From: Blastocystis sp. Blastoise
Taxonomy: Eukaryota > Protista > Bigyra: Opalinata
Assembly (NCBI GenBank): GCA_039096225.1
Contig: JBBPEB010000002.1
Location: 744,001-808,000, forward strand
Direction: 5' to 3'
DNA length: 64,000 nt
Below the pieces are notes generated by a model that saw nothing but the letters and a program-made list of their open reading frames with translations, was not told the DNA's origin and searched no databases. Every line of letters begins with the position of its first letter. Positions within the stretch are counted from its first letter, which is position 1. Shown here in pieces: positions 736 through 60,501 of this stretch. The position numbers and the translations under genes are program-made.

Positions 736-746
736 TTATTGAGATA

Positions 747-805
<59 letters not shown>

Positions 806-4382: not shown

Positions 4383-4435
4383 TCTTCTTTCATTTCTATT
4401 TGTATTTAATGTTTCTAGTATTTCTATTATTCATA

Positions 4436-8929
<4,494 letters not shown>

Positions 8930-11999: not shown

Positions 12000-14870
12000 A
12001 TGAGTTCTGAACAGACTAACAATAATGGATTCAAATCAAAACGTTTGCGTATTTTTAATAATACTACCAGTAATATAATTTTCAGATATATTTGAGAACA
12101 ATGATGCAAATGATTTGAACATACAAATATCACAGGAAGAATTAATGAATTCATTTAACGTACCTGATAGTGATAGAATCGAAATTAATAGCGAAACTAG
12201 CATTATTGATCAATTAATGAAAAGTATAAAAGATAAAGTATATATTGTATATAAGCAATCTTTTCAATTAACAGGACTATTGTCAATGATTTATCAATAG
12301 GAGATTTCAAGGCATAATGATAATAATGATGATATGACAATACAGAAGATAATATACGCCTGCTGGTGTTCTTTGAGAATTAGTAAAGAGAAAATAAAAA
12401 ATCTATATCAACTCGTTAGTGATATAATAAGCTTCATTGCTCCAAATCATGAAAAAATAAAGATTCCAGCAAGAGGACAAGATGTAATAAGAAAATTTTG
12501 CAATTCAGTTCCAGAAAAGCCTCAATCAAGAAATATATATCTATGTAGTGAATGTAATAATATTATTCAATATAATTCTGGAAGGAGACTTCTTAATGAA
12601 GATAGTTTATCTTGCTCAACAAGTAGCTGTAATGGAGAAGGTATATCATAACTATATATAACTATAATATAAGTATAGATAATAGAATAATATATAATAA
12701 TATGTAATATATAATATGCGTATAGATAATAGAATAATATATAATATAATATATATAATATAATAATATATAATATAATATATATAATATAATAATATAT
12801 AATATATAATATATAATAATATAATATATATAATAATATAAAATATATAATAATATAATATATATAATAATATAATATATATAATAATATACTATATATA
12901 ATATATAATAATATAGTAACTAAAATAACGTTTCTACCACTAATCTCAAGAATAAAATATCTTCTATCTTCTAAAGAATTAATAGAAGATATTAGTTATT
13001 ATACAAAACAAGAAATAGTAGCAATTCTTGGTAATAATTTTAATTCTTCAGTGGATGTTCCAGCCTATATGAAAGGTAATAACTTTAAGCGTTCTATCTC
13101 GGAAGTATTTCAAAAAGGAGATATTTTTCTTACCTTCAATATTACATGTGATGGTGTATCCATGGTTGATAATGGTGTAGCAGATATAAATAAAACATCG
13201 TTTCCCGTTCTAGTTCAACTTCTTAATTACAATAAAAATAGAAACTTAGATAAACGCGTATTCTGGTCATATTCAGTTGTAAATGAAAACCAGTGGAAGT
13301 CTATTTTAAAAGTTCTAGTAGAGGAATTTAAGGAGCTTCAAAAAGGTGTTATAATGGATATATGGATACAGGATCATTACGAGAGACAACGTGTAGTATG
13401 TATCTTAAATAATGTATATGGTGACTGTGCAGCCATTTCTATGATTGGCTGTTTCACAGGTTCATCATCATGTTTCCCATGTAGGCATTGTGAGATGGAA
13501 TGGGATAGAAGTAACATGAAATTCCATGAAGGAATCAAGTGTTCATTTATACATATAAAAAAGTATATCAGGTTTAGTAAATCTATAGAAACAATAGAAA
13601 CTATTCATTTTCCTATTATTAGTTCACTAGATACTTCTATTCTAGAAAAAGAAGAGCATATGCAATTATATTCATTAACAGCCAGTAGCAATATAATAAT
13701 AGAAAATTTAGGTTCACAATATATATATAAGGATTCACTAAAGCAGCAATACTATATTCCACGTTCTAAGAATTCGATTCAGCAATGTAGGCAACTATGT
13801 AAAGATGGTGAATCATCTTTTGGTGTCAAACATGATTCTAATCCATTTGAAGAAATATCTTATGTTGACTCATCTACTCTCTTTTCTATTGATACCATGC
13901 ATTTATATAATAATATTGTAACGCTTCTTATGAACCTCCTTTTCAGTTATAATTCAAATGACTATATTAATAAATTGAATAAGAATAGTATTCCAAATCC
14001 TGAAAAAGTAATTAAAACATTTGCATTAAACGAAGATAATATCATTATTTTAGAAACTAGAATAAAGAGTATTAATACCCTATATAATAACTATGAGAGT
14101 GAATTCAGATATATCCTTAATGAGCAGAAATACAGATGCATGAGTTCTCATTCCAGAATCTACTTCTTCTCCTATATTCTTCCAATGTTAGTAGTTGATT
14201 TTGGTGTAAAGGATTCACCAATCATATTGTTAATAGAGCCTCCAGCTACCATAATAAGACAGGCTGATAAATATGAAGGTTCTAAACGTTCAGATATAAT
14301 TAACATCCTTAAAGATCAGTGCTATCTATTTTCATTTCTATGTGAGGTAATATTACCAAAAGAACTAATCAATACTCAAATACATCTTATTCAGCATTTA
14401 TATTTTAGTATAAAAAACTGTGGTTCAACATATTATGGATGTACTTATAAATCAGAGAGATATTATTCATTTCTAAAGCGAGTAACACACGGAAGAAAAA
14501 AAAATCAACGATTCATGTATTATATCGATTATAGAACAGGAAATATATAACTTAATGCCATCATCTAATAACGTAGTTACAATTAATGACATGGAGAATA
14601 ATAGTGATGATAATAATGAAGAACATGAAGAGGAGGAACTAGGTAATAATAATACTATTATTGAGTTTGATATTCTAAAATTTCAGAATTCTTCAATAAG
14701 AACAGTAAGAGGATTAAGAGGAACGATGAATAGTAGACTTTCAATAAAGGATAAAGAAGAATTAATAAATCAATTACTATCATCATGCTCAACATGTATA
14801 TCTAATTAATTATTTAAAGAATTAGAAGGAGTGTCTTTCTTATATATAAAGGCAATAGAAGTTGGACATT
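12000..14870 (+). pseudogene. CACTA/EnSpm-Mirage-like (CMC) DDE transposase, disrupted
   Basis: ITCDGVS, YGDCAA..FTG..FPCRHC, IDTMH, IHLIQH, TYKSERYYSFLKR motifs and an N-terminal CxxC..CxxxxC. Stop at ~12093, frameshift in an A-run near 14500, 3' truncation. Confidence 0.8.
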
Positions 14871-16024: not shown

Positions 16025-16900
16025 CACTGGTAGGCACTTTTGAGTTTTTGAAGGTTTTTGATTGGCTAATTTTCGTTCAGAACTTATTCAGCCAATAAAA
16101 TTTGAATAAAAAAAAGACTTAGGCAAAAAAATGAAAATTTTCACAAAAATTTTAAGACGACTTTTTATTAGACTTTAAAAACCCTATTAGACATATTTTA
16201 ATAAAGAATTGACAATATTTTCTTGTTTTATAAGGTCACACAATATCAAAAACGTTTTTCTTTATTTTAAAGTCGCAATTCTGGCAAATAATGGGGTCAA
16301 TATTTTAAAACCTTTTGTTGCTCTGTTTAAAGTTTAGATCCTCTTAGAGTCACAAGAATGTGTAAAAGTGAATAAAAAGACCTCTATGGGTCAAAACCAA
16401 AATTCAGCCAAAAAGTCAAAATTTTGTATTTTTTCTACACTGAAAAAATGAGACGAGCCTTTTTGTCTGGCAGACAGTTAGACCAGATTTTTTGAATTGT
16501 ATTTTATTTACGGGAAAAATTTTGTTGTTCAAATCTGAGTGTATTTATATTTGAGAGCATATCACAGGAGACATGACTTCTAGGATTGTTTTTTTAGTTT
16601 ATTTTATTATGGTAAAAAGGAATCCAACAGAAAAGTTTGTTTGAATTTTAAAATAGACCATCCTTTTCCAGAATCAAATAAGACTCCTTCAAATCAAACT
16701 ATTTAGACATTATTTTACAACCAAGCAGTTGTATTAGTCATAAACAATAGTCTTTTAAAAGTTTTGCATACTGATTAAGAATATAGAGAAAATTAACTTT
16801 TTATTTTTATGCTACAACTCTTGGGATACAATAATAAAGCATCAAACAAATAATTTAAAACTACTTACTCATAAAAATAATTTACAAATCGAAAATTAAA
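16025..16900 (+). repeat. CACTG end / long subterminal region; inverted copy at ~38050-38944, diverged copy at 56776-57314
   Basis: Several hundred bp of clear similarity, e.g. GACTTAGGCAAAA, ACCCTATTAGACA, AAAACGTTTTT, ACACTGAAAAA. Confidence 0.85.
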
Positions 16901-28138: not shown

Positions 28139-30673
28139 GTTATATTATATCACGTGTATATGTTCGTGGAATAAATACTGTGGTGGTTGTAACTTCGTCG
28201 GCACTTGCTAAAGTATCTTGATGTTTTCTTTTAGTTTGGTGAACCTCATTCTATATATATATAAATTATATAAACATGATGTACAGAATATAATAATAGT
28301 TACATATAGGTTCATATATGTTATATACACAGCAATAATCTTCGTCATTGTCTTCATTTGATTCCTTGAAGTTATGGATATCACATACTATAACATTTGT
28401 TGGAACTATTTTTTTGATATTAATATATGTCTCATCTAGATTATATGGATCTTTATATATTAAATTATTTGAATTATATATTTTAAAAAAAAGACCACTC
28501 TTTGATGATTTCGTATCAGGATAATGATGAGCCTTTACAATAAATAAGTCTTCTATTTGAATGTATTCTAGTGCCTTTACTAAGCAAACATGGCTTGTTC
28601 CATTTATGTAATCATAATACATCAAATAGGAGTTATCTAATTTTTCTACTCCTTCGTCAATGTCTGTGCACGTAAAAGATAATGAATCATTGATCAAAAT
28701 CTCCGAATATCTAAAGATATTTAATTTCTTGGTGTTCTCCATTACATTATGAAAATTACTTGAATCTCTTAATAATTCTATTCTGCTTTCTGTAGTTATA
28801 TCACCAACATTTAGATTTGAAAATAATTTATTATTAATGTATACGCTATTCATTCTTATTATATGCTTCAAGAATAACTCCGTAAATAATTGAGTATTAT
28901 TATTATTAATACTTTCTCTTATGCCCTTTACTGAATAAATCTTCTGATTTTGGTCAGTAACGTAGTAAACACACTCATAAGCATTAAATGTAACAACATG
29001 AGCTGCTATTGAACTACTCTCCGACTCTAATGAACTATTAATTATTGAAGATGCTATATCTATATCTATTATTTCTTTAAAAGCCATGCTAATTATTGAA
29101 GATTTATTGAAGAAGAATCTTCCATGTGTAAGACGTTTTATTGATGAATAAAACCTTTCAGATTCCCAGGTACTAGTATATTGAAGAGATCCGGCATTTT
29201 GAATTGATTTCGTTAAATGAGAGAAATAATGTATCTGACTATTGATAAATTCTTTTGGCAAAACTAGATCACATAAGAAGAGGAATATATAACACTTAGA
29301 GTTTATTATGCTTAAATCTTCTATTGTTAACATTTGATTCTTTAAAGTACATAACATAATTATATCAGCTTGAATTTCTACTAAAGGAACTAATAACGAA
29401 TCTGTCTGATTAAAGTCTGATATTATTAGTGGTAATATATATGAAGCAAAGAAGATTCTACTGTGTGATGTCATTTTATAAAAACTGGTTTCTTCCAAAG
29501 CGAAGCGAAATTGATTTTCACTATCATAGAAAAAAGAATTTACATATTCTAATCTACTCTTCAGTATTTTAATATTATCTGATGATAATTGTAGTCTCTT
29601 TAGTATTTCATCAGGCTTATTGTATTTATGTTTATTTAAAATATCTGTATATTTCATTGTGTCAAATCCTAATAATAATGACAGAAGAAGAACTATGGTG
29701 TTGTTAAACATGTGCATTGGATCAATATTATAGCTCGTTGCTGCATTAAAATATGGAAGTCTTTCGAATACACTTATTTTTGAATTAATACCGTTCATAG
29801 AAGTTCTTGATGAGGTTTCTTCTCTTGCTATCTCAATAGTTTCTTTTGTATTATCTTCACATATTATTGTAGAATATGCATCAGATTGGGTTTCACTCTT
29901 GAAATACTTAGTATAATTTATGCATTTAATACCGTTGATAATACAATCTTCTTTAACTGTTATTAGACTAGTAGAAATAGGATAGAAGATGGTTGTAGTT
30001 GTAGATGAAGGAGAATAATCTATGAATGGCTTTATAATTGAATACGAAGTCTTTATACCCTTATGGAAGTTATCGTTATCTTTTTGAATATGTAAATTAC
30101 AGAATCTGCATGGATAATTTGAAGCTGGTCCCGTGAATTCACCTATTTTCTGAATTTCAGCAGTATCACCATACACTTCTAAGAGAATTCCAACTACTCT
30201 TTTTTCTTCAAGCAAACCATTATTACAAACAAGCATTGGTATTCCATCTTTCAAAAGTAGAAGTTCTTTTACTAATAGCTGTAAAGCAATGCTACGTTCG
30301 TCTGTAGAAGAAACCGTAAATACCCAAAACTTCCTTTTATCATATAATCTTATGGGCTTATAATTTAGTAGTTTGATGAGTACTGGTTGGGAGCTTTTAT
30401 TCTTTTCTATTAATGGAGAATTATATACAGAAATTCCATCTGAAGTTACGGTGAAGAACAAAAATATATCACCGTTGTTATGAACTGTTTTCATGTACTC
30501 CTTAAAATTATCTCCATTCATGTATAAAGGAAGACTTTTATTTGAAACATAATTATCATGTAATGCTGGTTCTATATCTTCTTTATTATATAATTCAATA
30601 TCTTGAATTAATTTTTCGCTTTTGAGGAGTTGCTTAATACGAGATATCAGTGGTAAAACTGTGGTATATCTAA

Positions 30674-30711
<38 letters not shown>

Positions 30712-31038
30712 CATAATATCATATAATTAATATAATATAATTTAATATAATATAATATAATGTATAGATTTTATACATAACGATATTTATATATATTTAT
30801 AACTATGTTCTATTAAATATGTATATATATATATTAATGTATATCATTGAATATTATATATAATATAATATATATTATATAATTATATATAACATATATA
30901 TATAGGTATATACGAGAGCCGTCACAATTTACAGAGTTGCAATTATTTCTAGAATTTGTAGAAATATTTCTACCTGTATTAAAGTCAACTAATATTTTAC
31001 ATTCTTCACACCAAAATATATTTATACTAAATGGCATA
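28139..31038 (-). CDS. CMC DDE transposase of the 16025-41582 element, 3' portion
   Basis: VTSDGIS, YGDTA..FTG..YPCRFC, IDPMH, IHYFSH, TWESERFYSSIKR; collinear with 13051..14550; exon MPFSINIFWCEEC at ~30910-31037. Confidence 0.85.
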
Positions 31039-37100: not shown

Positions 37101-38944
37101 TTCTCATAAGGTAATAATGGATTAAATAAACATAAGCAATAAACATTAGGTATATAGGCAAAGAGGAAAGGAAATAAAGTAAATAATCGAGAAGATAAAG
37201 AGAATAGAGAGGCAAAGAGACTGGGTCTATAGAAGAAGTATTATTAGAATAATATGTATATTAATATATATAACAATAATAAGTATAAAAATGATAAAAA
37301 TAAATATAATAAAAGAAGAATAGTAATAAATATATATATGTTGATCTTCAGTAGCTGTAAAACAATCAAAATATATATATATACAAATATAGTAATATTG
37401 ATAGAATGATTCAATCTATATATAATAATAATAATAATAATAATAAATAGACATACCATTTTTATTTGAAAGAATAGTACCATCAATCGGATTTGTAAAT
37501 GGGAAAGAAAAATTCATATTCTATATATAATATAATAAGATTAGCATAAAATATTATAATATTAAAATAAATAAAAATTAAATAAATATTTAATATAGGA
37601 AAATGAAAAAAGGGAAAAATGTTAATGCAAACGAAAAAAAATATATATGATATTTATATACTGTTGATAACATGTTTGGTTGTGGTTTGACAGTGTTTTG
37701 AGTTAGCAGAACCAAAAAGAACCTAAAAAAATAAAAAAAAAGAAATGGAAAAAAATACCTTACCAAATAGATAGATAACAACAATTCTTTTTGACAAACA
37801 CTTCTAATAATGACTAAGGAGACTGTTTGAATGCAGACGGGAAGCCAGAATCAAGAACCTAAAAGAATCAGATAAAAAAATAGGAAATATTCAATAAATA
37901 AATTATGATATAATATATACCTGCATGGAAAACACCTAAGATATGCATAGCAGTCACTAGATCTGCTTGTATACAACAAATTAAAAATAAAGATAAATTC
38001 ATATTTAAAGTCAATTTTTTAGTCAAATACTAAAAATTTTCATAAAAATTCATTTTTAATTTTTTTTAAAATTTTTATGACTCAATACTAAAGTAACAAG
38101 TTTTAACAATTATATATTACACTATTGACACAACATTATTGTATCCCACTACTTTCAGGTTTTAAAAAAATACTCATTTTTGTTGACTCTCTGATCTATT
38201 TATATTCTGTTCTAAAAGCTATTGATTATAACTTGAAACGTTTTTATAATACATAATTAACTCTCAAAACAACTCTTTAAAAGACTTTTCTTTGATTCTG
38301 AGGAAAAGTAGTTTTTTTATAAGTTTTGACATACTCTTTGTATGCGGAACTTTAAGTCATGATAGAATAAAATGAAAAAAGTCTTTTAAAACTCTTATGT
38401 CGTCTGATATATAATAAAATATAAATAGACTCACTTTTAAACAATAAAAATATTCCCGTAAATATTTTAAAAATTCAAAACTCTGGTCTGATTGCCCATG
38501 GAACAAATAGGCTCGGTTCAATTTTTCAATGTAAAAAAAATATAAATTTTTGACTTTTTGACTGAATTTTGGTTTTGTCCCATAGAGGTCAGCTTATTCA
38601 CTTTTAATCATATATGTGACTATGAGAGGGTCTTCACTTTAAACACAACTATAAAATACTTTAAAATATTGACCCCATTATTTGTCGGAATTGCGACTTT
38701 AAAATAAATAAAAACGTTTTGGATATTGGGTGACCCTCTGCAAATAAAAATTAATGTCAATTCTTTATTAAAATATGTCTAATAGGGTATTTGAGTCTAA
38801 ATCAAAAGTCGACTTAAAAATTTTGTGAAAATTTTCATTTTTTTGCCTAAGTCTTTTTTTTCTTGAGTTTTCATTGGCTGAATCAATTTTGAACGAAAAT
38901 CAACCAATCAAAAACCTTCAAAAACTCAAAAGTGCCTACCAGTG
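31039..38944 (+). mobile_element. Nested non-autonomous CACTG element (7.9 kb) carrying degenerate gene fragments
   Basis: 12-bp perfect TIR CACTGGTAGGCA/TGCCTACCAGTG; TSD ATA at 31036-31038 and 38945-38947; interrupts a transposase exon. Confidence 0.92.
32740..37960 (-). pseudogene. Mosaic of degenerate captured exons, products unidentified
   Basis: Many GT..AG-bounded coding-like segments with stops; one exon shared with 20717-20890; 57-bp tandem duplication near 33822-33937. Confidence 0.5.
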
Positions 38945-44710: not shown

Positions 44711-45139
44711 TAAGATCAAAAATAAAACACAAGAGCTAATCAATTATTATTAATAAACAATAAATATATATAATCAATAATAAAAATAGCTAAAATGATA
44801 CTAAATAAAAAAGGAAATAATACTCAAAAAAATGTAATATAAAATGTTAAATAGGAATTATCAATAAAGTATGAATTGAATTATTTAGAATATACTAAAC
44901 TAATAACTAAACAATAGAAGATAACAACTAAAACAATTGAAATAATAATTTATAAAATATGAAATAGTCTTCATCCTAAAAATAAAAAAAATAGAAATGA
45001 ATAACAAAAACATAAAAATAAACATAATATTAAAAAAAAACATAAAATATAACAATTAAGAGATGACAACTATCAAAACTCAAGCGTAGGTGGCGTAGCC
45101 AGTCGTGAAACGCTTGTATATATAAATATATTAATATAC

Positions 45140-46020
45140 CATTTTATATCGCTATTCTTTAAATAATATGAACCATCACCTAATTTGTTTGGACCTAATT
45201 CGCAAAGTTTTTTTGCTGTATAGGTTTTTCCCAAACCAGTTTCGCCCCATATATATATAACTACTGGAGATTCTACTCTTTTCTTTTCATTAAAATCATA
45301 GATTAATCTCTTAATTGCTTGTGAATGTAAGAGTGTAAATCCCGGAAATTCGTGCCATATAGCATCGTAAGTATTACCATTCCTTATTGCTGTAGCTACT
45401 TCTTCGGAAATTTTTTTCGGATGTTTTTTATTTTTATAATATTTAACATCTGTTTTAATAAATCTAATAGGACCAGGTGATAACGGAGAAGGTTCACTAC
45501 TTATGTTTCTTGATTCTAAGTTATACAGTCTTCCATTGAAAGTTTGACTTGCAAATAAATCACGATGAGTACCACTTGTTATAGCTCCATAGCCTCTAGT
45601 ATTTTGGTTACGATATATTTCATGTAAATTATTTATCTATATATATATATATATATACATATATATATGTATATACCTCTGATAAATAATATAGTACGTT
45701 TTCACGAGTTCCATCACGAGGTCTAACATCTGTATGTTCCAACTGAAGCATTCTTCGGACCTTATTTCTTCTTCTTCTTGTTGTTAATTCAATGTATAAA
45801 TGTGTATGCGTATTATGTGTTTCGTTATTAGGTTCAGTTACATACGCCACATACATAATTTCCTGTGGTAAACCATTTTCCTCCCAATTAGGTAGAGTCT
45901 CTTGAAAAAAGAAATCTCGGTCATCACCGAATAGTGTACAAAACCAATATTGACTTTGTGGTGACTATATACATATATACATAATAATTATATAAATACA
46001 ACATTATTATTATCACTCAT
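45140..46020 (-). pseudogene. rep: Divergent Rep paralog, truncated before Walker B
   Basis: Exons 46020-46000, 45964-45677 and 45636-45140 give YWFCTLF, THTHLYIE, VLYYLSE, WGETGLGKT...DIKW. The last exon is absent. Confidence 0.88.
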
Positions 46021-46337
46021 ATTTATAAAATATCAAATAAATATTAAAATAAATTATAAAATAAATTATAAAATAAAATAAATATAAGCCACGTCAGCAT
46101 AATTAAAAATACAGAATATGCCCTTATATCTTGTCAGGACCTAATCACCAGTCAATAAAAATTAAATTGTACCCATTCCCAAAACTCTTTTTTTGCTATT
46201 TTTAGGGTCTAATTCCTTCTGGATAAAAAGTTATTTCAATTTAAAGGTTTGGGACCCTAATTATAAATATTAAGAATTACACTACAACCAAACTCAACTT
46301 ATCCAATCCGATCGGAGAAACTCAAGATTCCTCCAAT

Positions 46338-46374
46338 CAAATTGAGCGATGACGCATTATTACATCACAATTTG
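46338..46374 (+). promoter_or_regulatory. Putative rolling-circle origin, copy 1 (nonamer CATTATTAC at 46355-46363)
   Basis: CAAATTG-AGC-GATG [ACGCATTATTA] CATC-A-CAATTTG imperfect stem; fits the NANTATTAC consensus. Confidence 0.75.
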
Positions 46375-46871
46375 CTCTCAGCGAAACACGAAACAAAGAT
46401 CATCATAAGAGTATTTGACTCGAAAGTCAGAAGTAAATCTTACAATTAGTTGATCTTGATTTTTTATATCTATATTGTCTTTGTTTTCTATTCTTTCGAA
46501 CCACCTTTCTAATATATTACTACTTGAGAAATTCAACTCAATGCACATGTTCATGTGTATTCACGGGAAAGTTTTTTTACATTCGCGGCTTTTACCCGTA
46601 TATACCGTTCTTTATATTTAGCCGCCCCGTGAATATCTTTGTGAGTGAGAGCTGAGAGCAAATGCTCAGTTTTGTGGTTGTATAGTACTCTCGGATCCTT
46701 ATCTTGTTTTATTGTAGAAGTTCACAAAGAGTATGGTCGCGCAGTCGAGTTTGGTGTTCGATTTTTTTTTTTTTTTTTTTATGTTTTTTTTTAAAAAGAA
46801 TTAACAAAACAGTGTTTTTAATTATATATTATTATATTAGACAAGAATTAATGTTTGTAGTGTTAGTATAT

Positions 46872-47618
46872 TTAGTGTCGTAATCTATCTGGTAGATGTT
46901 GAGCATAGTATACCATAGGTGATGTTCCTGCTGTTTGTGCAGCGGCAACGTATCTTGTAGCTTCGTCGAACAATGCAGTGATAACGGTATTATATTGTGG
47001 TTCTGTTCTGAAAGTCATTTGTCCTCCTTCTGAAATATTATACATAATAGGAAATGTGTTGATTCCTCCCATTTGGTATATAAAAACTAGTATTGTTTCT
47101 GCTTTTGTAAAATCATCGGATGCATAGTAGATGGGTAGTGTGAAATCATAGGCGAGTTGTTCTGCAGTGAATGGATAGGTATAGAGTAAACCGTTTAGTC
47201 TATATATATATTCTTTTTTGACTCCGTTTTTGTTAATTGTGTAGACTGTGTTTATAATTTGTTTGATAGTAGAGTTGCAGAGTTTTTTAATGTTCTTTGC
47301 ATTTTCGTCGTCACCTGTAGCGCTTGGTATAAATATTTGAATTGGTATAGTATAATCTGTTGATGTTAATAGTGTTCTAGCTTGAGCTACGTACATTCTT
47401 CCACATTTTTTGGCTACAAGCATTAATTGGTGCCTAAGTTTGTGTTTATTTGCGATTCCACCTACGGTAGTATCTTCGGCGATAGTTGCCCAATTTGTTC
47501 TAAAAGAATTAACTGCATTGTTATAAGTGGTTACAGCGTTTGAATTTCTATTATATCTTCTTCTTCTATAATAGGTACGTTGAGTACCTCTATATCTGGA
47601 TGAGTATCTATAAGGCAT
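46872..47618 (-). CDS. 248-aa protein with Arg/Tyr-rich N-terminal arm (capsid or genome-binding structural protein)
   Basis: MPYRYSSRYRGTQRTYYRRRRYNRN N-terminus typical of CRESS capsids; intronless intact ORF. Confidence 0.65.
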   Translation of the reverse strand: MPYRYSSRYRGTQRTYYRRRRYNRNSNAVTTYNNAVNSFRTNWATIAEDTTVGGIANKHKLRHQLMLVAKKCGRMYVAQARTLLTSTDYTIPIQIFIPSATGDDENAKNIKKLCNSTIKQIINTVYTINKNGVKKEYIYRLNGLLYTYPFTAEQLAYDFTLPIYYASDDFTKAETILVFIYQMGGINTFPIMYNISEGGQMTFRTEPQYNTVITALFDEATRYVAAAQTAGTSPMVYYAQHLPDRLRH

Positions 47619-47672
47619 TTATTGTAAATAAAATAAATAAAATATGATATGATTTGATTAATAATTATTAAT

Positions 47673-47776
47673 GGAGTCAGTTTATCTGAATATATAAATT
47701 TGTTTTTAGAGACGGTTTATCTGAATATATAAATTCGTATTAGGAGACAGTTTATCTGTATATATAAATTCGTTTT
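47673..47776. promoter_or_regulatory. 35-bp x3 repeat with TATA motif between the divergent structural genes (also 52720-52823)
   Basis: GAG(T/A)C(A/G)GTTTATCTG(A/T)ATATATAAATT at 47673, 47708 and 47743. Confidence 0.6.
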
Positions 47777-47816
47777 CTTATAAATATGTTTTGTTATTTT
47801 GCATAAATTATTTTAA

Positions 47817-49055
47817 ATGTCTAGTTTAGGTACTATAATAAATGACAAGTTGTCAATGGCTAGTTCCTCTGCGGGAGCCCTTTATCTTAAGCGTTACGTT
47901 AATCCTTGTGATGATACTTCTATACCTGTTGACGGTGTACCTGATGGCCAAACCCACATGATTTATACTTTAAATAATAAGTTTAATATATCTATAGATC
48001 AAGATACATTTGTAGATCCTAGAGCTGTTGTCCCAGATTTATATAATAATTTTACTATAATTGCAACACCATGGTCTACTTATCCTATTTTGATTTATGG
48101 TACATTTACTTGGTATAATACTGTGGATAAAACATCATCATCTCAAACATGTATTATGGGTGTTAAAGATCCTAATTGGCAGCAAAATCAAGAAGATTTT
48201 AATTTAGGTCGTGGATTATTTCGTGGTTGTACATTAAAATGGGCTGGTAATACTAATAATATGCAAGGTCTTATATATGGTATTCAAGTACCGTATTGTG
48301 TAGATACTATGTATACTACTAGTGGTAGTGTAGAATCTCAAGATTTATCTTATAAAGCTTTTAATAGTTATATGAATCCTTATATTCCTTTAGATTCTAA
48401 TGCTATTACTTCTTATTCTCCAAAATATAAAGTATTTAATGTCCCTGATGGTTGTTATATGCCTCAACATTTATCTTATGGTTATAAGAATTATTATAGG
48501 CCACCTATATTTCAAAAGAAACAACTTGATACAGGAGATAGTTATGAATATTTTATTAATGGATTATTAGGAAGTGCTAGTGCTCAAATGAATATATTTG
48601 ATTATGATACTTGGATGTCTAAAAGAATATTTACTAAGGTTATGTTACCTATAGAAGTAACTGAATATGTTCCTTCTTTCTTACATACTGGATTTAATTT
48701 TGGTATTATTAGAGTTGAAGGTTCAAATTTTAACAATCCATTTACTTTAAAAATATGTAATGGTTATGAGTTAGTTCCTTCTTATAATAGTGAGTATTTC
48801 CCATTATTAAAGAATCCTCCTTTATTAGATGAACAAGCTCTTTATGCTTGTGCTATTTTAACTCAATCATTAGATTTTTGTTATCCTTCTTCTTATAATG
48901 ATTTTCAAACTATGTGGAATGGTGTAGTTGATTTCTGGAATAAATTTAAAAGGTCTTGGAATAGTGAAACTGTTCAAAATATAGCTACAGCTGCTAGTGC
49001 TATACCTGGTGTTTCTCCATGGGTTCAAGGAATAAATACTTTAACTAAATTTTAA
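47817..49055 (+). CDS. 412-aa capsid protein, alphanodavirus/tetravirus-like (peptidase A6/A21-type autocleaving coat)
   Basis: GALYLKRYVNP..GVPDG; GCYMP; LK..GYELVP..PPLLDEQAL..YPSSYN|DFQTMW..AASAIPG C-terminus. Confidence 0.75.
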   Translation: MSSLGTIINDKLSMASSSAGALYLKRYVNPCDDTSIPVDGVPDGQTHMIYTLNNKFNISIDQDTFVDPRAVVPDLYNNFTIIATPWSTYPILIYGTFTWYNTVDKTSSSQTCIMGVKDPNWQQNQEDFNLGRGLFRGCTLKWAGNTNNMQGLIYGIQVPYCVDTMYTTSGSVESQDLSYKAFNSYMNPYIPLDSNAITSYSPKYKVFNVPDGCYMPQHLSYGYKNYYRPPIFQKKQLDTGDSYEYFINGLLGSASAQMNIFDYDTWMSKRIFTKVMLPIEVTEYVPSFLHTGFNFGIIRVEGSNFNNPFTLKICNGYELVPSYNSEYFPLLKNPPLLDEQALYACAILTQSLDFCYPSSYNDFQTMWNGVVDFWNKFKRSWNSETVQNIATAASAIPGVSPWVQGINTLTKF

Positions 49056-49152
49056 TTTATGTGTATATATATTTTTATTTGTCTTAAATTAATTTTGTTT
49101 TGTTCAATTTTTATTATTACTACTCACACTCACTGCACTTCAACACAAATAT

Positions 49153-49227
49153 TATTTCACAATTTCACAATTTCACAAAATCACAATTTCACATTTTCAC
49201 AGATACACAATTTCACAATTGCACAAT
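49153..49227. repeat. 8-bp ATTTCACA tandem repeat between the convergent cap and rep 3' ends (also 54200-54274)
   Basis: About 9 imperfect units. Confidence 0.8.
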
Positions 49228-49340
49228 GTGTTGAGTTGCATATGAATTATATAACAAAACAAATAAGTTTTTAAAACAAAGATATAACTGAGAAAAGATA
49301 TGAAATCAGAAAAACTCAATAGATAATAAATATATAGAAT

Positions 49341-51066
49341 TTAGAATTCTTGTTTAATGTTTTGAGAGTCTGGGAGTATACAATAATCATCTTCGCTACT
49401 ATCCCATGAAAGACTTATAGGTTTATTATGATCAGAATATTCTTCATCGTCTTCTTCATTATCAGTGAAAGTGAGATCAATGAGTTCATTACTATATTCG
49501 TTATCTGAAGATGATAAATCTAGAATAGGTATAGGAGTATTAGGTCTTTTGTGACAGAAATTTGTTTTTTTAGGAGTAGTTATTTCAATAGTAGGAAGAG
49601 ATATACGAGGAGTTGTTGGAGGTGAGCTAAGGGTAAGTTCATTATCTAGTTCTATTTGTATGGGTATATTGACTGTTGGTTTGTATTGATTATTAATTTT
49701 CATCATAATATCAGCGGCTTGTATATATTTGGTTTCATCATCTTTATATAGTAGATTACGTCTGATACCTTTGATGTAATCATCTTTAGCTTTGCTATAT
49801 TTGAAATCAATAGTATTATCTTCAAGTAATTCATATTCATTGTAGAATCTTCTGAGTAGTTGTTCTAATTCATCATTTGAAAGTTCTTTGAAATTTTCTT
49901 TTAAGCTTCTATCAGACGTAAATATAATTAGAGGTGAGGTGATTTTTACTGTTGAACCTTTTGTTTCCACTCCTACATCATAATAATCTAAAATACGAAG
50001 AAGGTCTTTATCATTATAGATTTTTCTAAAATCATCAATAATGATGCCAAACTGACCTTTGTATCCATCCCACCTATAAATATAGAATATAATATAATAT
50101 ATACCATTTAATATCTCCATTCTTCATGTAGTAAGATCCTTTACCATCTTCATTTTCGCCTAGTTCACATATTTTTTTAGCTGTATAAGTTTTACCTACT
50201 CCAGTTTTCCCATATAAATATAAAACTATAGGTGCAGTATTTCTTTTTTTGGTATTAAAGTCATAGATTGCTTTTTTTATGTTATTTGAATGTAATAGGG
50301 CAAAGGAAGCATATTCTTCCCATATATCTTCATAAGTACAACCATTTTTTATCATTGAAGCAACTTCTTCAGATATTTTTTTTGGATCTATATATATAAT
50401 ATAAATTATAATGTATATACGTTTTTTGTTTTTAGAATATTTGACTTTATTATGAGTAAAATTCATAGGAGCTGTAGATATTGGGTCTATTCTAGCAAAG
50501 CTATTATTATTATTCATATTATAAAGAACACCATTATAAGTAGAAGCATTTATTAAATCGCGATGCATTCCATTTTGAAAGTTTGCTCCATATCCAAGTG
50601 TATTGCTTGTATTGTAATATTCATCTATTTCATTTATCTAATATTTATAATTAAATAATTAAATTAATATATATAAATATATACTTCACTTAAATAAATT
50701 AAAGTTGCCTCTCGTGACCACTCCCTTGGTCTTACATCAGTATGCTCTAAGGATAGTAATCTTATTATCTGATTTCTTCTTAACCTTTTTTTCATTTCCA
50801 TATATAAATGTACATGAGTGTTGTTTGTAGTCGGAGATACTTCTCTTGATAAAGCAACATAGTTCTATATATATATATATATAATATATTTATATACTAT
50901 TTCAAATGGAAGACCATTACTATTCCAACTGGGTTGGATTACTTCATTAAAATGTAAAAGGTCTTCACCAAATAAAGTAAGAGTCCAATATTGAGACTGA
51001 CGGTTCTATATAACAATAACTTAAATATATTTATTAATATACAGGGTTAGTATTATTATTTTGCAT
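49341..51066 (-). CDS. rep: Replication-associated protein Rep (HUH endonuclease plus SF3 helicase), 6 exons, 514 aa
   Basis: Exons 51066-51043, 51005-50898, 50864-50685, 50637-50421, 50387-50105 and 50073-49341 splice in frame. Motifs WTLTLF, HVHLY, YLSE, GKTGVGKT, WWDGY, IIIDDF, VETKG, IIFTSD, LLRRF. Confidence 0.92.
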
Positions 51067-51384
51067 TTTTTTTTTTTTTACTAAAAATTATAAAATAAAT
51101 TATAAAATAAATTATAAAATAAAATAAATATAAGCCACGTCAGCATAATTAAAAATACAGAATATGCCCTTATATCTTGTCAGGACCTAATCACCAGTCA
51201 ATAAAAATTAAATTGTACCCATTCCCAAAACTCTTTTTTTGCTATTTTTAGGGTCTAATTCCTTCTGGATAAAAAGTTATTTCAATTTAAAGGTTTGGGA
51301 CCCTAATTATAAATATTAAGAATTACACTTACAACCAAACACAACTTATCCAATCCGATCGGAGAAACTCAAGATTCCTCCAAT

Positions 51385-51421
51385 CAAATTGAGCGATGAC
51401 GCATTATTACATCACAATTTG
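51385..51421 (+). promoter_or_regulatory. Putative origin, copy 2 (nonamer 51402-51410)
   Basis: Identical to copy 1. Confidence 0.75.
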
Positions 51422-51918
51422 CTCTCAGCGAAACACGAAACAAAGATCATCATAAGAGTATTTGACTCGAAAGTCAGAAGTAAATCTTACAATTAGTTGA
51501 TCTTGATTTTTTATATCTATATTGTCTTTGTTTTCTATTCTTTCGAACCACCTTTCTAATATATTACTACTTGAGAAATTCAACTCAATGCACATGTTCA
51601 TGTGTATTCACGGGAAAGTTTTTTTACATTCGCGGCTTTTACCCGTATATACCGTTCTTTATATTTAGCCGCCCCGTGAATATCTTTGTGAGTGAGAGCT
51701 GAGAGCAAATGCTCAGTTTTGTGGTTGTATAGTACTCTCGGATCCTTATCTTGTTTTATTGTAGAAGTTCACAAAGAGTATGGTCGCGCAGTCGAGTTTG
51801 GTGTTCGATTTTTTTTTTTTTTTTTTTATGTTTTTTTTTAAAAAGAATTAACAAAACAGTGTTTTTAATTATATATTATTATATTAGACAAGAATTAATG
51901 TTTGTAGTGTTAGTATAT

Positions 51919-52665
51919 TTAGTGTCGTAATCTATCTGGTAGATGTTGAGCATAGTATACCATAGGTGATGTTCCTGCTGTTTGTGCAGCGGCAACGTAT
52001 CTTGTAGCTTCGTCGAACAATGCAGTGATAACGGTATTATATTGTGGTTCTGTTCTGAAAGTCATTTGTCCTCCTTCTGAAATATTATACATAATAGGAA
52101 ATGTGTTGATTCCTCCCATTTGGTATATAAAAACTAGTATTGTTTCTGCTTTTGTAAAATCATCGGATGCATAGTAGATGGGTAGTGTGAAATCATAGGC
52201 GAGTTGTTCTGCAGTGAATGGATAGGTATAGAGTAAACCGTTTAGTCTATATATATATTCTTTTTTGACTCCGTTTTTGTTAATTGTGTAGACTGTGTTT
52301 ATAATTTGTTTGATAGTAGAGTTGCAGAGTTTTTTAATGTTCTTTGCATTTTCGTCGTCACCTGTAGCGCTTGGTATAAATATTTGAATTGGTATAGTAT
52401 AATCTGTTGATGTTAATAGTGTTCTAGCTTGAGCTACGTACATTCTTCCACATTTTTTGGCTACAAGCATTAATTGGTGCCTAAGTTTGTGTTTATTTGC
52501 GATTCCACCTACGGTAGTATCTTCGGCGATAGTTGCCCAATTTGTTCTAAAAGAATTAACTGCATTGTTATAAGTGGTTACAGCGTTTGAATTTCTATTA
52601 TATCTTCTTCTTCTATAATAGGTACGTTGAGTACCTCTATATCTGGATGAGTATCTATAAGGCAT
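51919..52665 (-). CDS. 248-aa Arg-rich-arm protein, copy 2
   Basis: Identical translation to 46872..47618. Confidence 0.65.
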   Translation of the reverse strand: MPYRYSSRYRGTQRTYYRRRRYNRNSNAVTTYNNAVNSFRTNWATIAEDTTVGGIANKHKLRHQLMLVAKKCGRMYVAQARTLLTSTDYTIPIQIFIPSATGDDENAKNIKKLCNSTIKQIINTVYTINKNGVKKEYIYRLNGLLYTYPFTAEQLAYDFTLPIYYASDDFTKAETILVFIYQMGGINTFPIMYNISEGGQMTFRTEPQYNTVITALFDEATRYVAAAQTAGTSPMVYYAQHLPDRLRH

Positions 52666-52863
52666 TTATTGTAAATAAAATAAATAAAATATGATATGAT
52701 TTGATTAATAATTATTAATGGAGTCAGTTTATCTGAATATATAAATTTGTTTTTAGAGACGGTTTATCTGAATATATAAATTCGTATTAGGAGACAGTTT
52801 ATCTGTATATATAAATTCGTTTTCTTATAAATATGTTTTGTTATTTTGCATAAATTATTTTAA

Positions 52864-54102
52864 ATGTCTAGTTTAGGTACTATAATAAATGACAAGTTGT
52901 CAATGGCTAGTTCCTCTGCGGGAGCCCTTTATCTTAAGCGTTACGTTAATCCTTGTGATGATACTTCTATACCTGTTGACGGTGTACCTGATGGCCAAAC
53001 CCACATGATTTATACTTTAAATAATAAGTTTAATATATCTATAGATCAAGATACATTTGTAGATCCTAGAGCTGTTGTCCCAGATTTATATAATAATTTT
53101 ACTATAATTGCAACACCATGGTCTACTTATCCTATTTTGATTTATGGTACATTTACTTGGTATAATACTGTGGATAAAACATCATCATCTCAAACATGTA
53201 TTATGGGTGTTAAAGATCCTAATTGGCAGCAAAATCAAGAAGATTTTAATTTAGGTCGTGGATTATTTCGTGGTTGTACATTAAAATGGGCTGGTAATAC
53301 TAATAATATGCAAGGTCTTATATATGGTATTCAAGTACCGTATTGTGTAGATACTATGTATACTACTAGTGGTAGTGTAGAATCTCAAGATTTATCTTAT
53401 AAAGCTTTTAATAGTTATATGAATCCTTATATTCCTTTAGATTCTAATGCTATTACTTCTTATTCTCCAAAATATAAAGTATTTAATGTCCCTGATGGTT
53501 GTTATATGCCTCAACATTTATCTTATGGTTATAAGAATTATTATAGGCCACCTATATTTCAAAAGAAACAACTTGATACAGGAGATAGTTATGAATATTT
53601 TATTAATGGATTATTAGGAAGTGCTAGTGCTCAAATGAATATATTTGATTATGATACTTGGATGTCTAAAAGAATATTTACTAAGGTTATGTTACCTATA
53701 GAAGTAACTGAATATGTTCCTTCTTTCTTACATACTGGATTTAATTTTGGTATTATTAGAGTTGAAGGTTCAAATTTTAACAATCCATTTACTTTAAAAA
53801 TATGTAATGGTTATGAGTTAGTTCCTTCTTATAATAGTGAGTATTTCCCATTATTAAAGAATCCTCCTTTATTAGATGAACAAGCTCTTTATGCTTGTGC
53901 TATTTTAACTCAATCATTAGATTTTTGTTATCCTTCTTCTTATAATGATTTTCAAACTATGTGGAATGGTGTAGTTGATTTCTGGAATAAATTTAAAAGG
54001 TCTTGGAATAGTGAAACTGTTCAAAATATAGCTACAGCTGCTAGTGCTATACCTGGTGTTTCTCCATGGGTTCAAGGAATAAATACTTTAACTAAATTTT
54101 AA
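52864..54102 (+). CDS. 412-aa noda/tetravirus-like capsid, copy 2
   Basis: Identical translation to 47817..49055. Confidence 0.75.
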   Translation: MSSLGTIINDKLSMASSSAGALYLKRYVNPCDDTSIPVDGVPDGQTHMIYTLNNKFNISIDQDTFVDPRAVVPDLYNNFTIIATPWSTYPILIYGTFTWYNTVDKTSSSQTCIMGVKDPNWQQNQEDFNLGRGLFRGCTLKWAGNTNNMQGLIYGIQVPYCVDTMYTTSGSVESQDLSYKAFNSYMNPYIPLDSNAITSYSPKYKVFNVPDGCYMPQHLSYGYKNYYRPPIFQKKQLDTGDSYEYFINGLLGSASAQMNIFDYDTWMSKRIFTKVMLPIEVTEYVPSFLHTGFNFGIIRVEGSNFNNPFTLKICNGYELVPSYNSEYFPLLKNPPLLDEQALYACAILTQSLDFCYPSSYNDFQTMWNGVVDFWNKFKRSWNSETVQNIATAASAIPGVSPWVQGINTLTKF

Positions 54103-54387
54103 TTTATGTGTATATATATTTTTATTTGTCTTAAATTAATTTTGTTTTGTTCAATTTTTATTATTACTACTCACACTCACTGCACTTCAACACAAATATT
54201 ATTTCACAATTTCACAATTTCACAAAATCACAATTTCACATTTTCACAGATACACAATTTCACAATTGCACAATGTGTTGAGTTGCATATGAATTATATA
54301 ACAAAACAAATAAGTTTTTAAAACAAAGATATAACTGAGAAAAGATATGAAATCAGAAAAACTCAATAGATAATAAATATATAGAAT

Positions 54388-56113
54388 TTAGAATTCTTGT
54401 TTAATGTTTTGAGAGTCTGGGAGTATACAATAATCATCTTCGCTACTATCCCATGAAAGACTTATAGGTTTATTATGATCAGAATATTCTTCATCGTCTT
54501 CTTCATTATCAGTGAAAGTGAGATCAATGAGTTCATTACTATATTCGTTATCTGAAGATGATAAATCTAGAATAGGTATAGGAGTATTAGGTCTTTTGTG
54601 ACAGAAATTTGTTTTTTTAGGAGTAGTTATTTCAATAGTAGGAAGAGATATACGAGGAGTTGTTGGAGGTGAGCTAAGGGTAAGTTCATTATCTAGTTCT
54701 ATTTGTATGGGTATATTGACTGTTGGTTTGTATTGATTATTAATTTTCATCATAATATCAGCGGCTTGTATATATTTGGTTTCATCATCTTTATATAGTA
54801 GATTACGTCTGATACCTTTGATGTAATCATCTTTAGCTTTGCTATATTTGAAATCAATAGTATTATCTTCAAGTAATTCATATTCATTGTAGAATCTTCT
54901 GAGTAGTTGTTCTAATTCATCATTTGAAAGTTCTTTGAAATTTTCTTTTAAGCTTCTATCAGACGTAAATATAATTAGAGGTGAGGTGATTTTTACTGTT
55001 GAACCTTTTGTTTCCACTCCTACATCATAATAATCTAAAATACGAAGAAGGTCTTTATCATTATAGATTTTTCTAAAATCATCAATAATGATGCCAAACT
55101 GACCTTTGTATCCATCCCACCTATAAATATAGAATATAATATAATATATACCATTTAATATCTCCATTCTTCATGTAGTAAGATCCTTTACCATCTTCAT
55201 TTTCGCCTAGTTCACATATTTTTTTAGCTGTATAAGTTTTACCTACTCCAGTTTTCCCATATAAATATAAAACTATAGGTGCAGTATTTCTTTTTTTGGT
55301 ATTAAAGTCATAGATTGCTTTTTTTATGTTATTTGAATGTAATAGGGCAAAGGAAGCATATTCTTCCCATATATCTTCATAAGTACAACCATTTTTTATC
55401 ATTGAAGCAACTTCTTCAGATATTTTTTTTGGATCTATATATATAATATAAATTATAATGTATATACGTTTTTTGTTTTTAGAATATTTGACTTTATTAT
55501 GAGTAAAATTCATAGGAGCTGTAGATATTGGGTCTATTCTAGCAAAGCTATTATTATTATTCATATTATAAAGAACACCATTATAAGTAGAAGCATTTAT
55601 TAAATCGCGATGCATTCCATTTTGAAAGTTTGCTCCATATCCAAGTGTATTGCTTGTATTGTAATATTCATCTATTTCATTTATCTAATATTTATAATTA
55701 AATAATTAAATTAATATATATAAATATATACTTCACTTAAATAAATTAAAGTTGCCTCTCGTGACCACTCCCTTGGTCTTACATCAGTATGCTCTAAGGA
55801 TAGTAATCTTATTATCTGATTTCTTCTTAACCTTTTTTTCATTTCCATATATAAATGTACATGAGTGTTGTTTGTAGTCGGAGATACTTCTCTTGATAAA
55901 GCAACATAGTTCTATATATATATATATATAATATATTTATATACTATTTCAAATGGAAGACCATTACTATTCCAACTGGGTTGGATTACTTCATTAAAAT
56001 GTAAAAGGTCTTCACCAAATAAAGTAAGAGTCCAATATTGAGACTGACGGTTCTATATAACAATAACTTAAATATATTTATTAATATACAGGGTTAGTAT
56101 TATTATTTTGCAT
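54388..56113 (-). CDS. rep: Rep, copy 2 (6 exons)
   Basis: Same as 49341..51066 shifted by 5047. Confidence 0.92.
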
Positions 56114-56431
56114 TTTTTTTTTTTTTACTAAAAATTATAAAATAAATTATAAAATAAATTATAAAATAAAATAAATATAAGCCACGTCAGCATAATTAAA
56201 AATACAGAATATGCCCTTATATCTTGTCAGGACCTAATCACCAGTCAATAAAAATTAAATTGTACCCATTCCCAAAACTCTTTTTTTGCTATTTTTAGGG
56301 TCTAATTCCTTCTGGATAAAAAGTTATTTCAATTTAAAGGTTTGGGACCCTAATTATAAATATTAAGAATTACACTTACAACCAAACACAACTTATCCAA
56401 TCCGATCGGAGAAACTCAAGATTCCTCCAAT

Positions 56432-56468
56432 CAAATTGAGCGATGACGCATTATTACATCACAATTTG
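56432..56468 (+). promoter_or_regulatory. Putative origin, copy 3 (nonamer 56449-56457)
   Basis: Identical to copy 1. Confidence 0.75.
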
Positions 56469-56775
56469 CTCTCAGCGAAACACGAAACAAAGATCATCAT
56501 AAGAGTATTTGACTCGAAAGTCAGAAGTAAATCTTACAATTAGTTGATCTTGATTTTTTATATCTATATTGTCTTTGTTTTCTATTCTTTCGAACCACCT
56601 TTCTAATATATTACTACTTGAGAAATTCAACTCAATGCACATGTTCATGTGTATTCACGGGAAAGTTTTTTTACATTCGCGGCTTTTACCCGTATATACC
56701 GTTCTTTATATTTAGCCGCCCCGTGAATATCTTTGTGAGTGAGAGCTGAGAGCAAATTGTGATGTAATAATATAT

Positions 56776-57314
56776 CACTGTTATTCTGGTTTCATCATTT
56801 TAAATCATATGATTGGCTTATTTCAGTTCAAAATTTGTTCAGCCACTAAAAATAGAGTAGTTTCATGGACTTAGGCAAAAATCGTGGATTTTGACAAAAT
56901 TTTGACACTTTTTTCAGTCGACTTTTGATTTAGACTTTAAAACCCTATTAGACAAATTTTAATAAAGAATTGGCATTATTGTTTATTTACAGAGGGTCAC
57001 ATAATACCCAAAACGTTTTTCTTTATTTTAAAGTGTTAATTTTGTGAATTCATGGTGTCCAAATTTTTTAAATTTTATAGTAGTGTTTGAAGTTTAGACC
57101 CTCTTATAGTCATAAATGTAATTAAAAGTGAATAAGCTGGTCTCTATGACTCAGAACCAAAATTCAGTCAAAAAATCAAAAATTTATTTCTTTTTACACT
57201 GAAAAATTGAGCCGAGCCTATTTGTATCATGGACAGTCAGACCAGAGTTTTCCATTTGAGATAATTGACTCAGGACGCTTTAAATTGTAAAACTTGACTC
57301 AGGATAGTCTATTT
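56776..57314 (+). mobile_element. End of another CACTG (CMC) element; the partner end is not in the window
   Basis: Begins CACTG; the next ~500 bp are similar to 16060-16550. Confidence 0.75.
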
Positions 57315-60353
<3,039 letters not shown>

Positions 60354-60501
60354 ATTTTTCAGTACTATTATTACCGCGATAAACTTGACAAAATGGCAGT
60401 GTTTTTATTGTTGTAAATTATAGAGAAAATAATTAAGGGGAAAAAATACACAATTCTTTGTTTATATTAATTATTCTATATTTGACGTTGTTGACGAGTG
60501 T

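Follow-up and report, generated by a model that had tools for sequence, protein, structure and literature searches.

Two tandem copies of a probable CRESS-DNA virus with an RNA-virus-type capsid in DNA of a gut protist, likely Blastocystis

Introduction

Capsids derived from RNA viruses are known from CRESS-DNA genomes, and their acquisition is a repeated event (PMC7000223). The route by which such genes enter DNA viruses is still an open question, and most of the hybrids have no known host. The Bacilladnaviridae are CRESS viruses of 3.4-6 kb with stramenopile hosts and a noda-like capsid fold (PMC13623192, PMC11903649); they carry Rep and capsid on opposite strands, as well as extra ORFs without assigned function. 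Cruciviruses and the hybrids ctdb796, ctce741, ctca5 and ctgh4 combine an RNA-virus capsid with varied CRESS Reps, some of them spliced, and protist hosts have been suspected (PMC7468197, PMC7000223). Blastocystis is a confirmed cressdnavirus host, and CRESSV1 infects it (PMC9615429).

The bacilladnavirid traits named above recur at the locus described here, which lies in a window of 64,000 nt (the whole stretch of DNA that was analysed). Membership of that family was nevertheless rejected. In bacilladnavirid Reps motif I contains FP, Walker B contains EE and the Arg finger contains PF (PMC11903649), where the Rep in the window has WTLTLF, IIIDD and LLRRF. Bacilladnavirids have 40-50% GC and diatom hosts (PMC13623192), whereas the unit described here has 28.6% GC and NCBI names point to Blastocystis as its host, and their capsids have a K/R-rich N-terminal arm (PMC12667125), whereas the first 40 aa of the window capsid have a net charge of -1. 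The noda-like jelly roll itself is present, but the capsid is nearer to the Sinai/tetra type (Z 27) than to bacilladnavirus (17-19), and five Rep introns also set this virus apart.

With the cruciviruses and related hybrids the locus shares an RNA-virus capsid on a CRESS Rep. However, the hybrid capsids are tombus-like or bacilladna-like and those of cruciviruses have an R-domain, whereas the window capsid is of the Sinai/tetra type; no crucivirus host was known in PMC7468197, whereas here the host genome contains the virus. Crucivirus capsids are tombusvirus-like, with R, S and P domains. Membership was rejected because the window capsid has no R-domain and matches tombus-type chains at Z ~8, along the barrel alone, compared with 25-27 for the RNA-virus coats above.

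Results and discussion

A 5,047-nt genome present twice

The earlier note had described a 5,047-bp unit present twice, from origin to origin. Repeat analysis of the window bears this out: the period is exactly 5,047 nt throughout 46295-56757, and the two head-to-tail units (46355-51401 and 51402-56448, together spanning 46355-56448) are letter-identical. A third unit starts at 56449 and runs on the forward strand to 56757, comprising origin 3 and the 300 nt after it. The head-to-tail arrangement implies a circular template. GC content is 28.6% in the virus unit against ~22% in the flanks.

Each unit encodes an Arg-rich protein (46872-47618, reverse strand), a capsid (47817-49055, forward strand) and a Rep (49341-51066, reverse strand); the identical genes of unit 2 lie at 51919-52665, 52864-54102 and 56113-54388. 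The nonamer CATTATTAC, which fits the NANTATTAC pattern of CRESS origins, occurs once per unit, at 46355, 51402 and 56449. The hairpin proposed around it fared less well than the nonamer. At origin 1 (46338-46374, forward strand; nonamer at 46355-46363) the stem is weak and bulged, with -3.2 kcal/mol; it is not the minimum-energy fold (z -0.87), and an equally good fold arises in 45 of 200 shuffled sequences. In the metagenome relative L016 an 18-bp stem holds TAGTATT in its loop (z -7.9).

NCBI proteins identical or near-identical to those of the window are named Blastocystis, the likely host. Contigs of one sequencing run, X1, are present on all three genes, covering 46960-47586 of the Arg-rich gene and 47829-49029 of the capsid gene. 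X1 was classed as RNA by an automated guess and may come from the same culture as the window, so it does not count as independent evidence that the virus occurs. The run leaves some intergenic bins uncovered, which does not prove absence, and the depth of its contigs gives no basis for ranking the genes. Runs X2 and X3 gave no matching contigs, which again does not prove absence.

We consider the locus best explained (probability roughly 0.7) as a CRESS-DNA virus present as two transcribed tandem copies in protist DNA, with a likely captured capsid whose missing basic arm the Arg-rich protein likely replaces. It looks like an independent, undescribed case of RNA-to-DNA capsid capture in a culturable host. 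Since such capture is already known (PMC7000223), this is a further case and not a new category.

An arm-less capsid of RNA-virus type

The 412-aa ORF, previously proposed as an RNA-virus-type coat, is confirmed by sequence and predicted structure as a capsid of the Sinai/tetra/alphanodavirus type, with a jelly roll and a helical domain. It matches Lake Sinai virus capsids directly (phmmer, E 3.6e-6), and a profile built from 10 relatives finds Sinai (4e-17), Providence virus (1e-6) and Helicoverpa stunt virus (0.0015). The predicted model (pLDDT 77) has a capsid fold and superposes on Nudaurelia omega with Z 27.1 and rmsd 3.0 over 286 aligned positions. Scores are similar for Sinai (26.8) and Flock House (25.0) and lower for bacilladnavirus (19.4 for 9s3s, 17.5 for 7ns0), and reach only ~8 for tombus/sobemo shells. 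A profile search of PDB sequences returned no bacilladnavirus capsid among its matches at E up to 10, an absence that is compatible with kinship. The gene was likely captured from an RNA virus of the Sinai/tetra/nodavirus type, independently of the bacilladnaviruses.

The window capsid has the fold of Lake Sinai, Providence, alphatetra- and alphanodavirus capsids, as well as an N-terminal helix, an NP/DP motif, an Asn at the scissile position and a C-terminal amphipathic helix. Unlike in these ssRNA viruses, it is encoded beside a Rep and not an RdRp and lacks a basic arm, and it is shorter than tetravirus coats. A retro-copied RNA virus was rejected, as there is no RdRp and the Rep has introns.

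In the predicted structure Asn361 superposes on N570, N556, N361 and N363 of the compared capsid chains, and it is invariant in 30/30 aligned rows. The 18-mer that follows ranks first among 395 windows in hydrophobic moment, and a helix is predicted at 363-381; it may act as a gamma-type membrane-active peptide. D32 and D33 adjoin C31, which aligns with Sinai M83, and seven of the 10 close relatives have His at that acidic position. We take D32 to be a candidate counterpart of the nodavirus catalytic Asp. Lake Sinai virus, in which this Tyr-Asn-Asp is also found, does not undergo cleavage (PMC9892032). Cleavage at Asn361 is a tentative proposal, to which we give slightly less than even odds. 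The shell would have T=3 symmetry, as in alphanodaviruses and bacilladnavirids.

The lack of a basic arm is shared with the closest relatives. The first 40 aa have a net charge of 0 or below in 10/10 of the closest capsids and of +7 to +16 in all seven more distant matches checked (7 of the other 23), and noda-like capsids of other CRESS contigs reach +11 to +22 over 60 aa (8/8). In the capsid tree, a quick search with long branches, the window capsid and the metagenome relatives described below fall into a group of 12 rows without the arm (SH-aLRT 94), separate from those CRESS capsids that bear one. The closest capsid relative, P0005 (39%), was compared as a protein alone, as were the RNA-type relatives.

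The Arg-rich protein

The 248-aa protein has a net charge of +10 in its first 40 aa, consistent with the separate Arg-rich (ARM) protein of the earlier note; the structure check added no confident fold (pLDDT 38, pTM 0.30). It is likely a genome-binding core protein, and that it condenses ssDNA inside the shell seems to us an evenly balanced proposition. Three 35-nt repeats (47673-47776) separate the Arg-rich gene from the capsid gene, which faces it head to head, and, judging by their position, are likely a bidirectional promoter, so that a single region would drive both genes divergently. Birnaviruses offer an analogy. Their VP2 has the same fold as the window capsid (Z 18), and VP3 is a separate genome-binding protein beside it; they differ in having dsRNA, a polyprotein and T=13. 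An arm-less capsid with a separate Arg-rich protein was not found in the literature searched and, if true, would be a new way of adapting an RNA capsid to DNA.

Alternatively, the 248-aa protein could be the ancestral CRESS capsid with a diverged jelly roll, the genome then having two capsid genes. CRESS capsids are typically of this size and begin with a similar Arg-rich stretch, several segments in the middle of the protein are strand-like, and two capsid genes, as present in some large CRESS genomes, have been described (PMC7000223). However, a Pfam search up to E 1 found no family for the protein, its positional counterparts in the metagenome relatives L016 and L017 match no capsid family, and its models are too poor to decide. 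We regard two capsid genes as unlikely and prefer the Arg-rich protein as a substitute arm.

The Rep gene and its affiliation

As the earlier note had proposed, the Rep gene has multiple introns. Its six exons give a stop-free protein of 514 aa, interrupted by five short GT-AG introns (51042-51006, 50897-50865, 50684-50638, 50420-50388 and 50104-50074, reverse strand), and the predicted spliced product is identical to the NCBI-annotated protein P0069. Three of the five introns appear as joints in X1 contigs, with lengths of 31, 33 and 47 nt at the predicted sites, and a fourth is bridged across a masked repeat. Rep alone among the three genes has introns. The host spliceosome would process its transcript, which would make this a virus adapted to an intron-rich host nucleus.

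The motifs WTLTLF, THVHLY, YLSE, GKTGVGKT, IIIDD and LLRRF mark the HUH and SF3 domains of a CRESS Rep. Pfam recognises the helicase (RNA_helicase, 1e-13) and gave no match to the HUH domain. Among PDB entries the helicase is matched best by a redondovirus Rep (E 5e-18), which says little because few CRESS Reps have been solved. YLSE and TSD depart from the usual CRESS forms, YxxK and TSN. In this virus group Rep nicks the origin and host polymerases copy the circle by rolling-circle replication; here Rep would nick at TATT^AC. No plasmid match for Rep was found.

The virus might instead belong to a described group whose capsid type went unnoticed: Pecoviridae/CRESSV1, Blastocystis EVE cluster 1, Gandreviridae or the ctdb796/ctce741 hybrids. 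Host genus and endogenous Rep sequences are shared with Pecoviridae/CRESSV1 and the Blastocystis EVE clusters, and cluster 1, which is Rep-like, is given no lineage in the section of PMC9615429 consulted. The part of PMC11945456 used here groups Peco- and Gandreviridae capsids with bacilladnavirid ones by loop pattern, and our Rep trees, again quick searches with long branches, took unnamed IMG/VR contigs as references. However, the pecovirids covered in the part of PMC13475009 used (one genus) have 2.9 kb and two ORFs, against 5,047 nt and three ORFs here, and in PMC11945456, as far as used, no capsid N-termini are more basic than those of pecovirids, whereas this capsid is arm-less. The Blastocystis EVEs in the part of PMC9615429 used are 37 Rep-like and one Cap-like fragments, against a whole three-gene genome in tandem. 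Furthermore, the only close Rep among 5,848 candidates of a word-indexed protein search was the host's own annotation, and Rep has a branch length of 2.5-2.9 in the trees. We consider a described group improbable, somewhat more so than two capsid genes. The Rep trees gave no placement among named families. The findings that the earlier note gave as refuting its proposal, all three proteins in one described family or a 412-aa ORF without a capsid fold, did not turn up: bacilladnavirid Rep signatures are absent, and the capsid is far closer to the Sinai/tetra/alphanoda type than to tombus-type shells.

Relatives and wider significance

Three of 107 metagenome pattern matches are relatives, all three with a CRESS Rep. 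Relatives lie on separate contigs of 5.1-5.6 kb with 40% GC. Both of sufficient length (L016 and L017) have the same plan, an arm-less capsid with an Arg-rich gene head to head and a CRESS Rep. Their Reps are ~25% identical to the window Rep and do not group with it in the free tree, although a single clade is not rejected (p-AU 0.19). Homology of the Arg-rich proteins is not provable from sequence (BLAST E 0.83; hhalign 6.8%; the real score is matched by 8 and by 170 of 1000 shuffles). Scans of IMG/VR for the capsid, spliced Rep and Arg-rich protein found no relatives, nor were any of 49 pattern matches in prokaryote genomes relatives; both scans are weak because near-exact peptides were required. 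Word-indexed protein searches returned the host's own copies only (one each of 1,493, 284 and, for Rep, 5,848 candidates), and no Rfam family was found.

These relatives suggest that a broader group has been overlooked. They support the undescribed RNA-DNA chimeric lineage that the earlier note had considered, although capsid capture as such is known (PMC7000223). Taken furthest, ssDNA viruses of gut protists would include a so far undescribed lineage at family level that made its own Sinai/tetra capsid capture, moved the arm to a second gene, kept gamma-peptide maturation and swapped the module between unrelated Reps, with an expressed Blastocystis provirus still able to make particles; we offer this only as a speculation, with the odds against it. 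As a complete, expressed hybrid genome is at hand in a culturable protist, particles, T-number, self-cleavage and DNA packaging are directly testable.

Ends of the array

The array had been given as 45119-56771. The repeat is real, but 45140-46020 (reverse strand) lies outside it. This segment encodes a Rep from a second, related virus, truncated within its third intron, after Walker A; the predicted exons are 46020-46000, 45964-45677 and 45636-45140. The intergenic region before origin 1 (46021-46354) is almost identical to its counterparts ahead of origins 2 and 3, departing from them at 46282, 46294 and left of 46045, and the two viruses likely crossed over within it. On the right, the third origin stands, and what follows is corrected: 56745-56771 (reverse strand) is a 27-nt inverted origin copy, nonamer positions 2-9 plus the right arm, joined via a 13-nt inverted repeat located within the unit. 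The host flank (56776-57257, forward strand) consists of the terminal part of a host repeat, which recurs in the window at 38944(-) and 16025(+) and likely represents one end of a DNA transposon. A target-site duplication is not definable because this repeat starts 4 nt past the array. The insertion may have arisen when a concatemer made by rolling-circle replication underwent recombination, in the shared intergenic region, with a sister virus infecting the same cell, with a template switch at the 13-nt inverted repeat forming the right end.

The virus could also be episomal, its rolling-circle concatemers having been misjoined to a host contig. In favour of this, the two units are letter-identical and the host junctions were read from the assembled contig. 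However, the left end runs into another virus's Rep, the right end passes through an inverted origin copy into a host repeat, and the host annotation holds a second Arg-rich/capsid pair with 1 and 3 aa differences. Simple concatemer misassembly does not produce such features, and we think an episome distinctly improbable. A host-resident rolling-circle element of viral origin that spreads without particles would account for the tandem copies, the second locus, the host-style introns and the end at a nonamer, but is very improbable, as an X1 contig covers the capsid gene, which is intact, the relatives are separate contigs with a different GC content, and the introns are confined to Rep.

The remnant of the second virus was missed in the first reading of the sequence. 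It encodes 268 aa without stops at 57% aa identity to the unit Rep (dN ~0.41 and dS ~1.16 over 267 codons). Its three intron positions match introns 1, 3 and 5 of the unit Rep, whereas introns 2 and 4 are missing, which shows that a virus of 5 kb can gain or lose introns.

Genome organization and Rep

The element is a real CRESS genome, intact and expressed, whose capsid is of the RNA-virus type, and it probably represents an undescribed lineage. As the earlier note had claimed, a 5,047-nt unit is present twice, origin to origin (46355–51401 and 51402–56448). The exact periodicity spans 46295–56757 and the two units are the same in every letter, with a GC content of 28.6% vs ~22% for the window. 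The ORFs of the unit also confirmed the proposed three-gene layout, with a 412-aa capsid on the plus strand and a 248-aa Arg-rich protein and Rep on the minus strand. The proposed origin held in part: each unit has a single nonamer CATTATTAC, but the hairpin stem is weak (-3.2 kcal/mol, with equally good folds in 45 of 200 shuffles). Short (A/T)TTTCAC-type repeats are located between the convergent 3' ends of capsid and Rep (49136–49227).

Removal of five AT-rich GT-AG introns (37, 33, 47, 33 and 31 nt) gives a stop-free Rep of 514 aa. Three of the five appear as joints in contigs of X1, a putative RNA run that may come from the window's own culture; a fourth is bridged by the same contig across a masked repeat, and this contig stops before the last one. 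HUH motifs I–III, Walker A, Walker B and the Arg finger were all found, followed by a C-terminal Pro/Ser/acidic tail of ~130 residues. Bacilladnavirid signatures, as defined in the available text of PMC11903649, were not found in this Rep.

Ends of the putative insertion

The shared intergenic region left of origin 1 (nonamer at 46355) leads into a different Rep (45140–46020, minus strand), 57% identical to the unit Rep, which suggests that the array is a recombinant of two related viruses. This left Rep has three of the five introns, is cut within its last intron and is under purifying selection (dN/dS ~0.35, a rough count). Motif III is YLSE in both Reps. In trees with unnamed IMG/VR contigs as references (86 rows, then 28 of those; four off-target or fragmentary rows removed) they sit apart on a long branch, without near relatives. 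A GC-richer stretch of ~55 nt (45060–45112), with no other match within the window, separates the cut Rep from AT-rich host DNA.

The right end is a 27-nt inverted origin copy terminating at the nonamer. A host repeat, with two further copies within the window, begins 4 nt beyond. This end could have formed by a template switch, then joining by Rep or microhomology, two routes that would look alike because the genome is so AT-rich.

Capsid protein

The 412-aa protein falls in the Sinai/tetra/alphanodavirus class by sequence, by profile, by language-model features and by predicted structure alike, in line with the noda/tetra-like coat suggested earlier. The predicted structure gave Z scores of 25–27 with Sinai/tetra/alphanoda RNA viruses, 17–19 with bacilladnaviruses and birnaviruses and ~8 with tombus-type shells. 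Since the RNA viruses score above the bacilladnaviruses, the model supports a capsid capture separate from that of bacilladnaviruses. Asn361 is invariant (30/30 aligned rows) and in the predicted structure superposes on the Asn at the scissile site in four solved capsids; the helix after it has the highest amphipathicity among 395 windows. This Tyr-Asn-Asp is shared by Lake Sinai virus, where it goes uncut (PMC9892032, in part), which counts against cleavage here. The 412-aa capsid lacks a basic arm, whereas bacilladnavirid capsids are described with one in the text available from PMC12667125.

Related contigs and the Arg-rich protein

A full HMMER scan with the capsid found 33 proteins at E <= 0.001, nine of them at 1e-10. 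The basic N-terminus is missing in all ten closest relatives, several of which sit on 5.5–6.6 kb contigs. Three metagenome contigs with such capsids, L016–L018 (3 of 107 pattern matches), all encode a CRESS Rep. In L016 (5,586 nt) and L017 (5,098 nt) the capsid gene lies next to an Arg-rich gene in head-to-head orientation; L018 ends too near to show it. L016 and L017 also encode a fourth protein of 470–560 aa (L016:1805–3490; L017:1553–2962), absent from the window and with no Pfam match. L016 has a strong origin hairpin and a terminal repeat of only 15 nt. GCTC repeats and GC-rich hairpins follow its origin stem-loop (5500–5586), and the L017 Rep has a RanBP-type zinc finger at its N-terminus.

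In a capsid tree (41 rows, quick search) the window capsid, its closest relative P0005 (39%) and the L016–L018 clade form one group (SH-aLRT 94), and eight noda-like capsids with arms, from other CRESS contigs, lie outside it. The L016 and L017 Reps are ~25% like the window Rep, and Rep trees neither recovered nor rejected a common clade. Ten IMG/VR CRESS contigs of 3.6–4.1 kb (L026, L036, L041, L042, L046, L047, L049, L051, L063 and L084), in which Walker B reads EE and a noda-like capsid profile matches weakly, are a separate hybrid group.

The Arg-rich proteins of L016 and L017 are homologous to one another (E 8e-20); homology to the 248-aa protein was not demonstrable by sequence comparison. 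Searches with the latter gave no family match or distant homologue, and structure prediction gave no usable model. Because it has an Arg-rich start, an arm-less capsid partner and a recurring head-to-head layout, we infer a putative genome-binding core protein. The main rival explanation is a diverged second capsid.

RNA-derived capsids on CRESS genomes are already known from bacilladnavirids (PMC13623192; PMC9426455, in part), cruciviruses, 36 of them with predicted spliced Reps (PMC7468197, in part), and several single genomes (PMC7000223, in part). The combination of a Sinai/tetra-type arm-less capsid and a separate Arg-rich protein was not found in the literature searched, which comprised main texts with few subscription journals and limited viral taxonomy. 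Nor did that literature describe the element itself; supplements of PMC9615429 and PMC7000223 may contain relatives.

Host and expression

Cressdnaviruses are confirmed to infect Blastocystis, for which 38 EVEs are described, all but one Rep-like (37; PMC9615429, in part). Tortoise-associated Blastocystis has a GC content of 21–23% and introns that are >30 nt and more variable (PMC10690189, in part); the main text of that paper uses 'virus' and 'viral' a single time each, in neither instance for an insertion. The spliced Rep has an identical counterpart among NCBI proteins of Blastocystis sp. Blastoise, and the structural proteins have a near-identical pair there. As this pair differs from the window versions by 1 and 3 residues, a second viral locus in the host is likely. 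X1 contigs cover parts of all three viral genes without any letter differences and thus fit the window copy, not the variant pair. At 47564, 48793, 49440 and 50519 single X1 contigs continue out of the viral sequence for 35–255 unrelated letters. Such contigs may be transcribed from further partial insertions, or may be chimeric.

The flanking DNA is AT-rich and eukaryotic, and contains transposon-like ORFs as well as an element encoding reverse transcriptase. A likely host DNA transposon with CACTG/CAGTG ends (56776–60401) carries a 45-nt subterminal inverted repeat (57314–57357/60310–60354); its spliced ORF pieces are piggyBac-like by eye, with no Pfam match. The repeat at the terminus of this transposon has copies at 16025–16693 and 38276–38944. 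Two long transposase-like ORFs (12871–14550 and 28266–30770) have weak DUF4218 matches, and non-LTR retroelement-like ORFs are found at 736–4430 (reverse transcriptase, E 1e-33).
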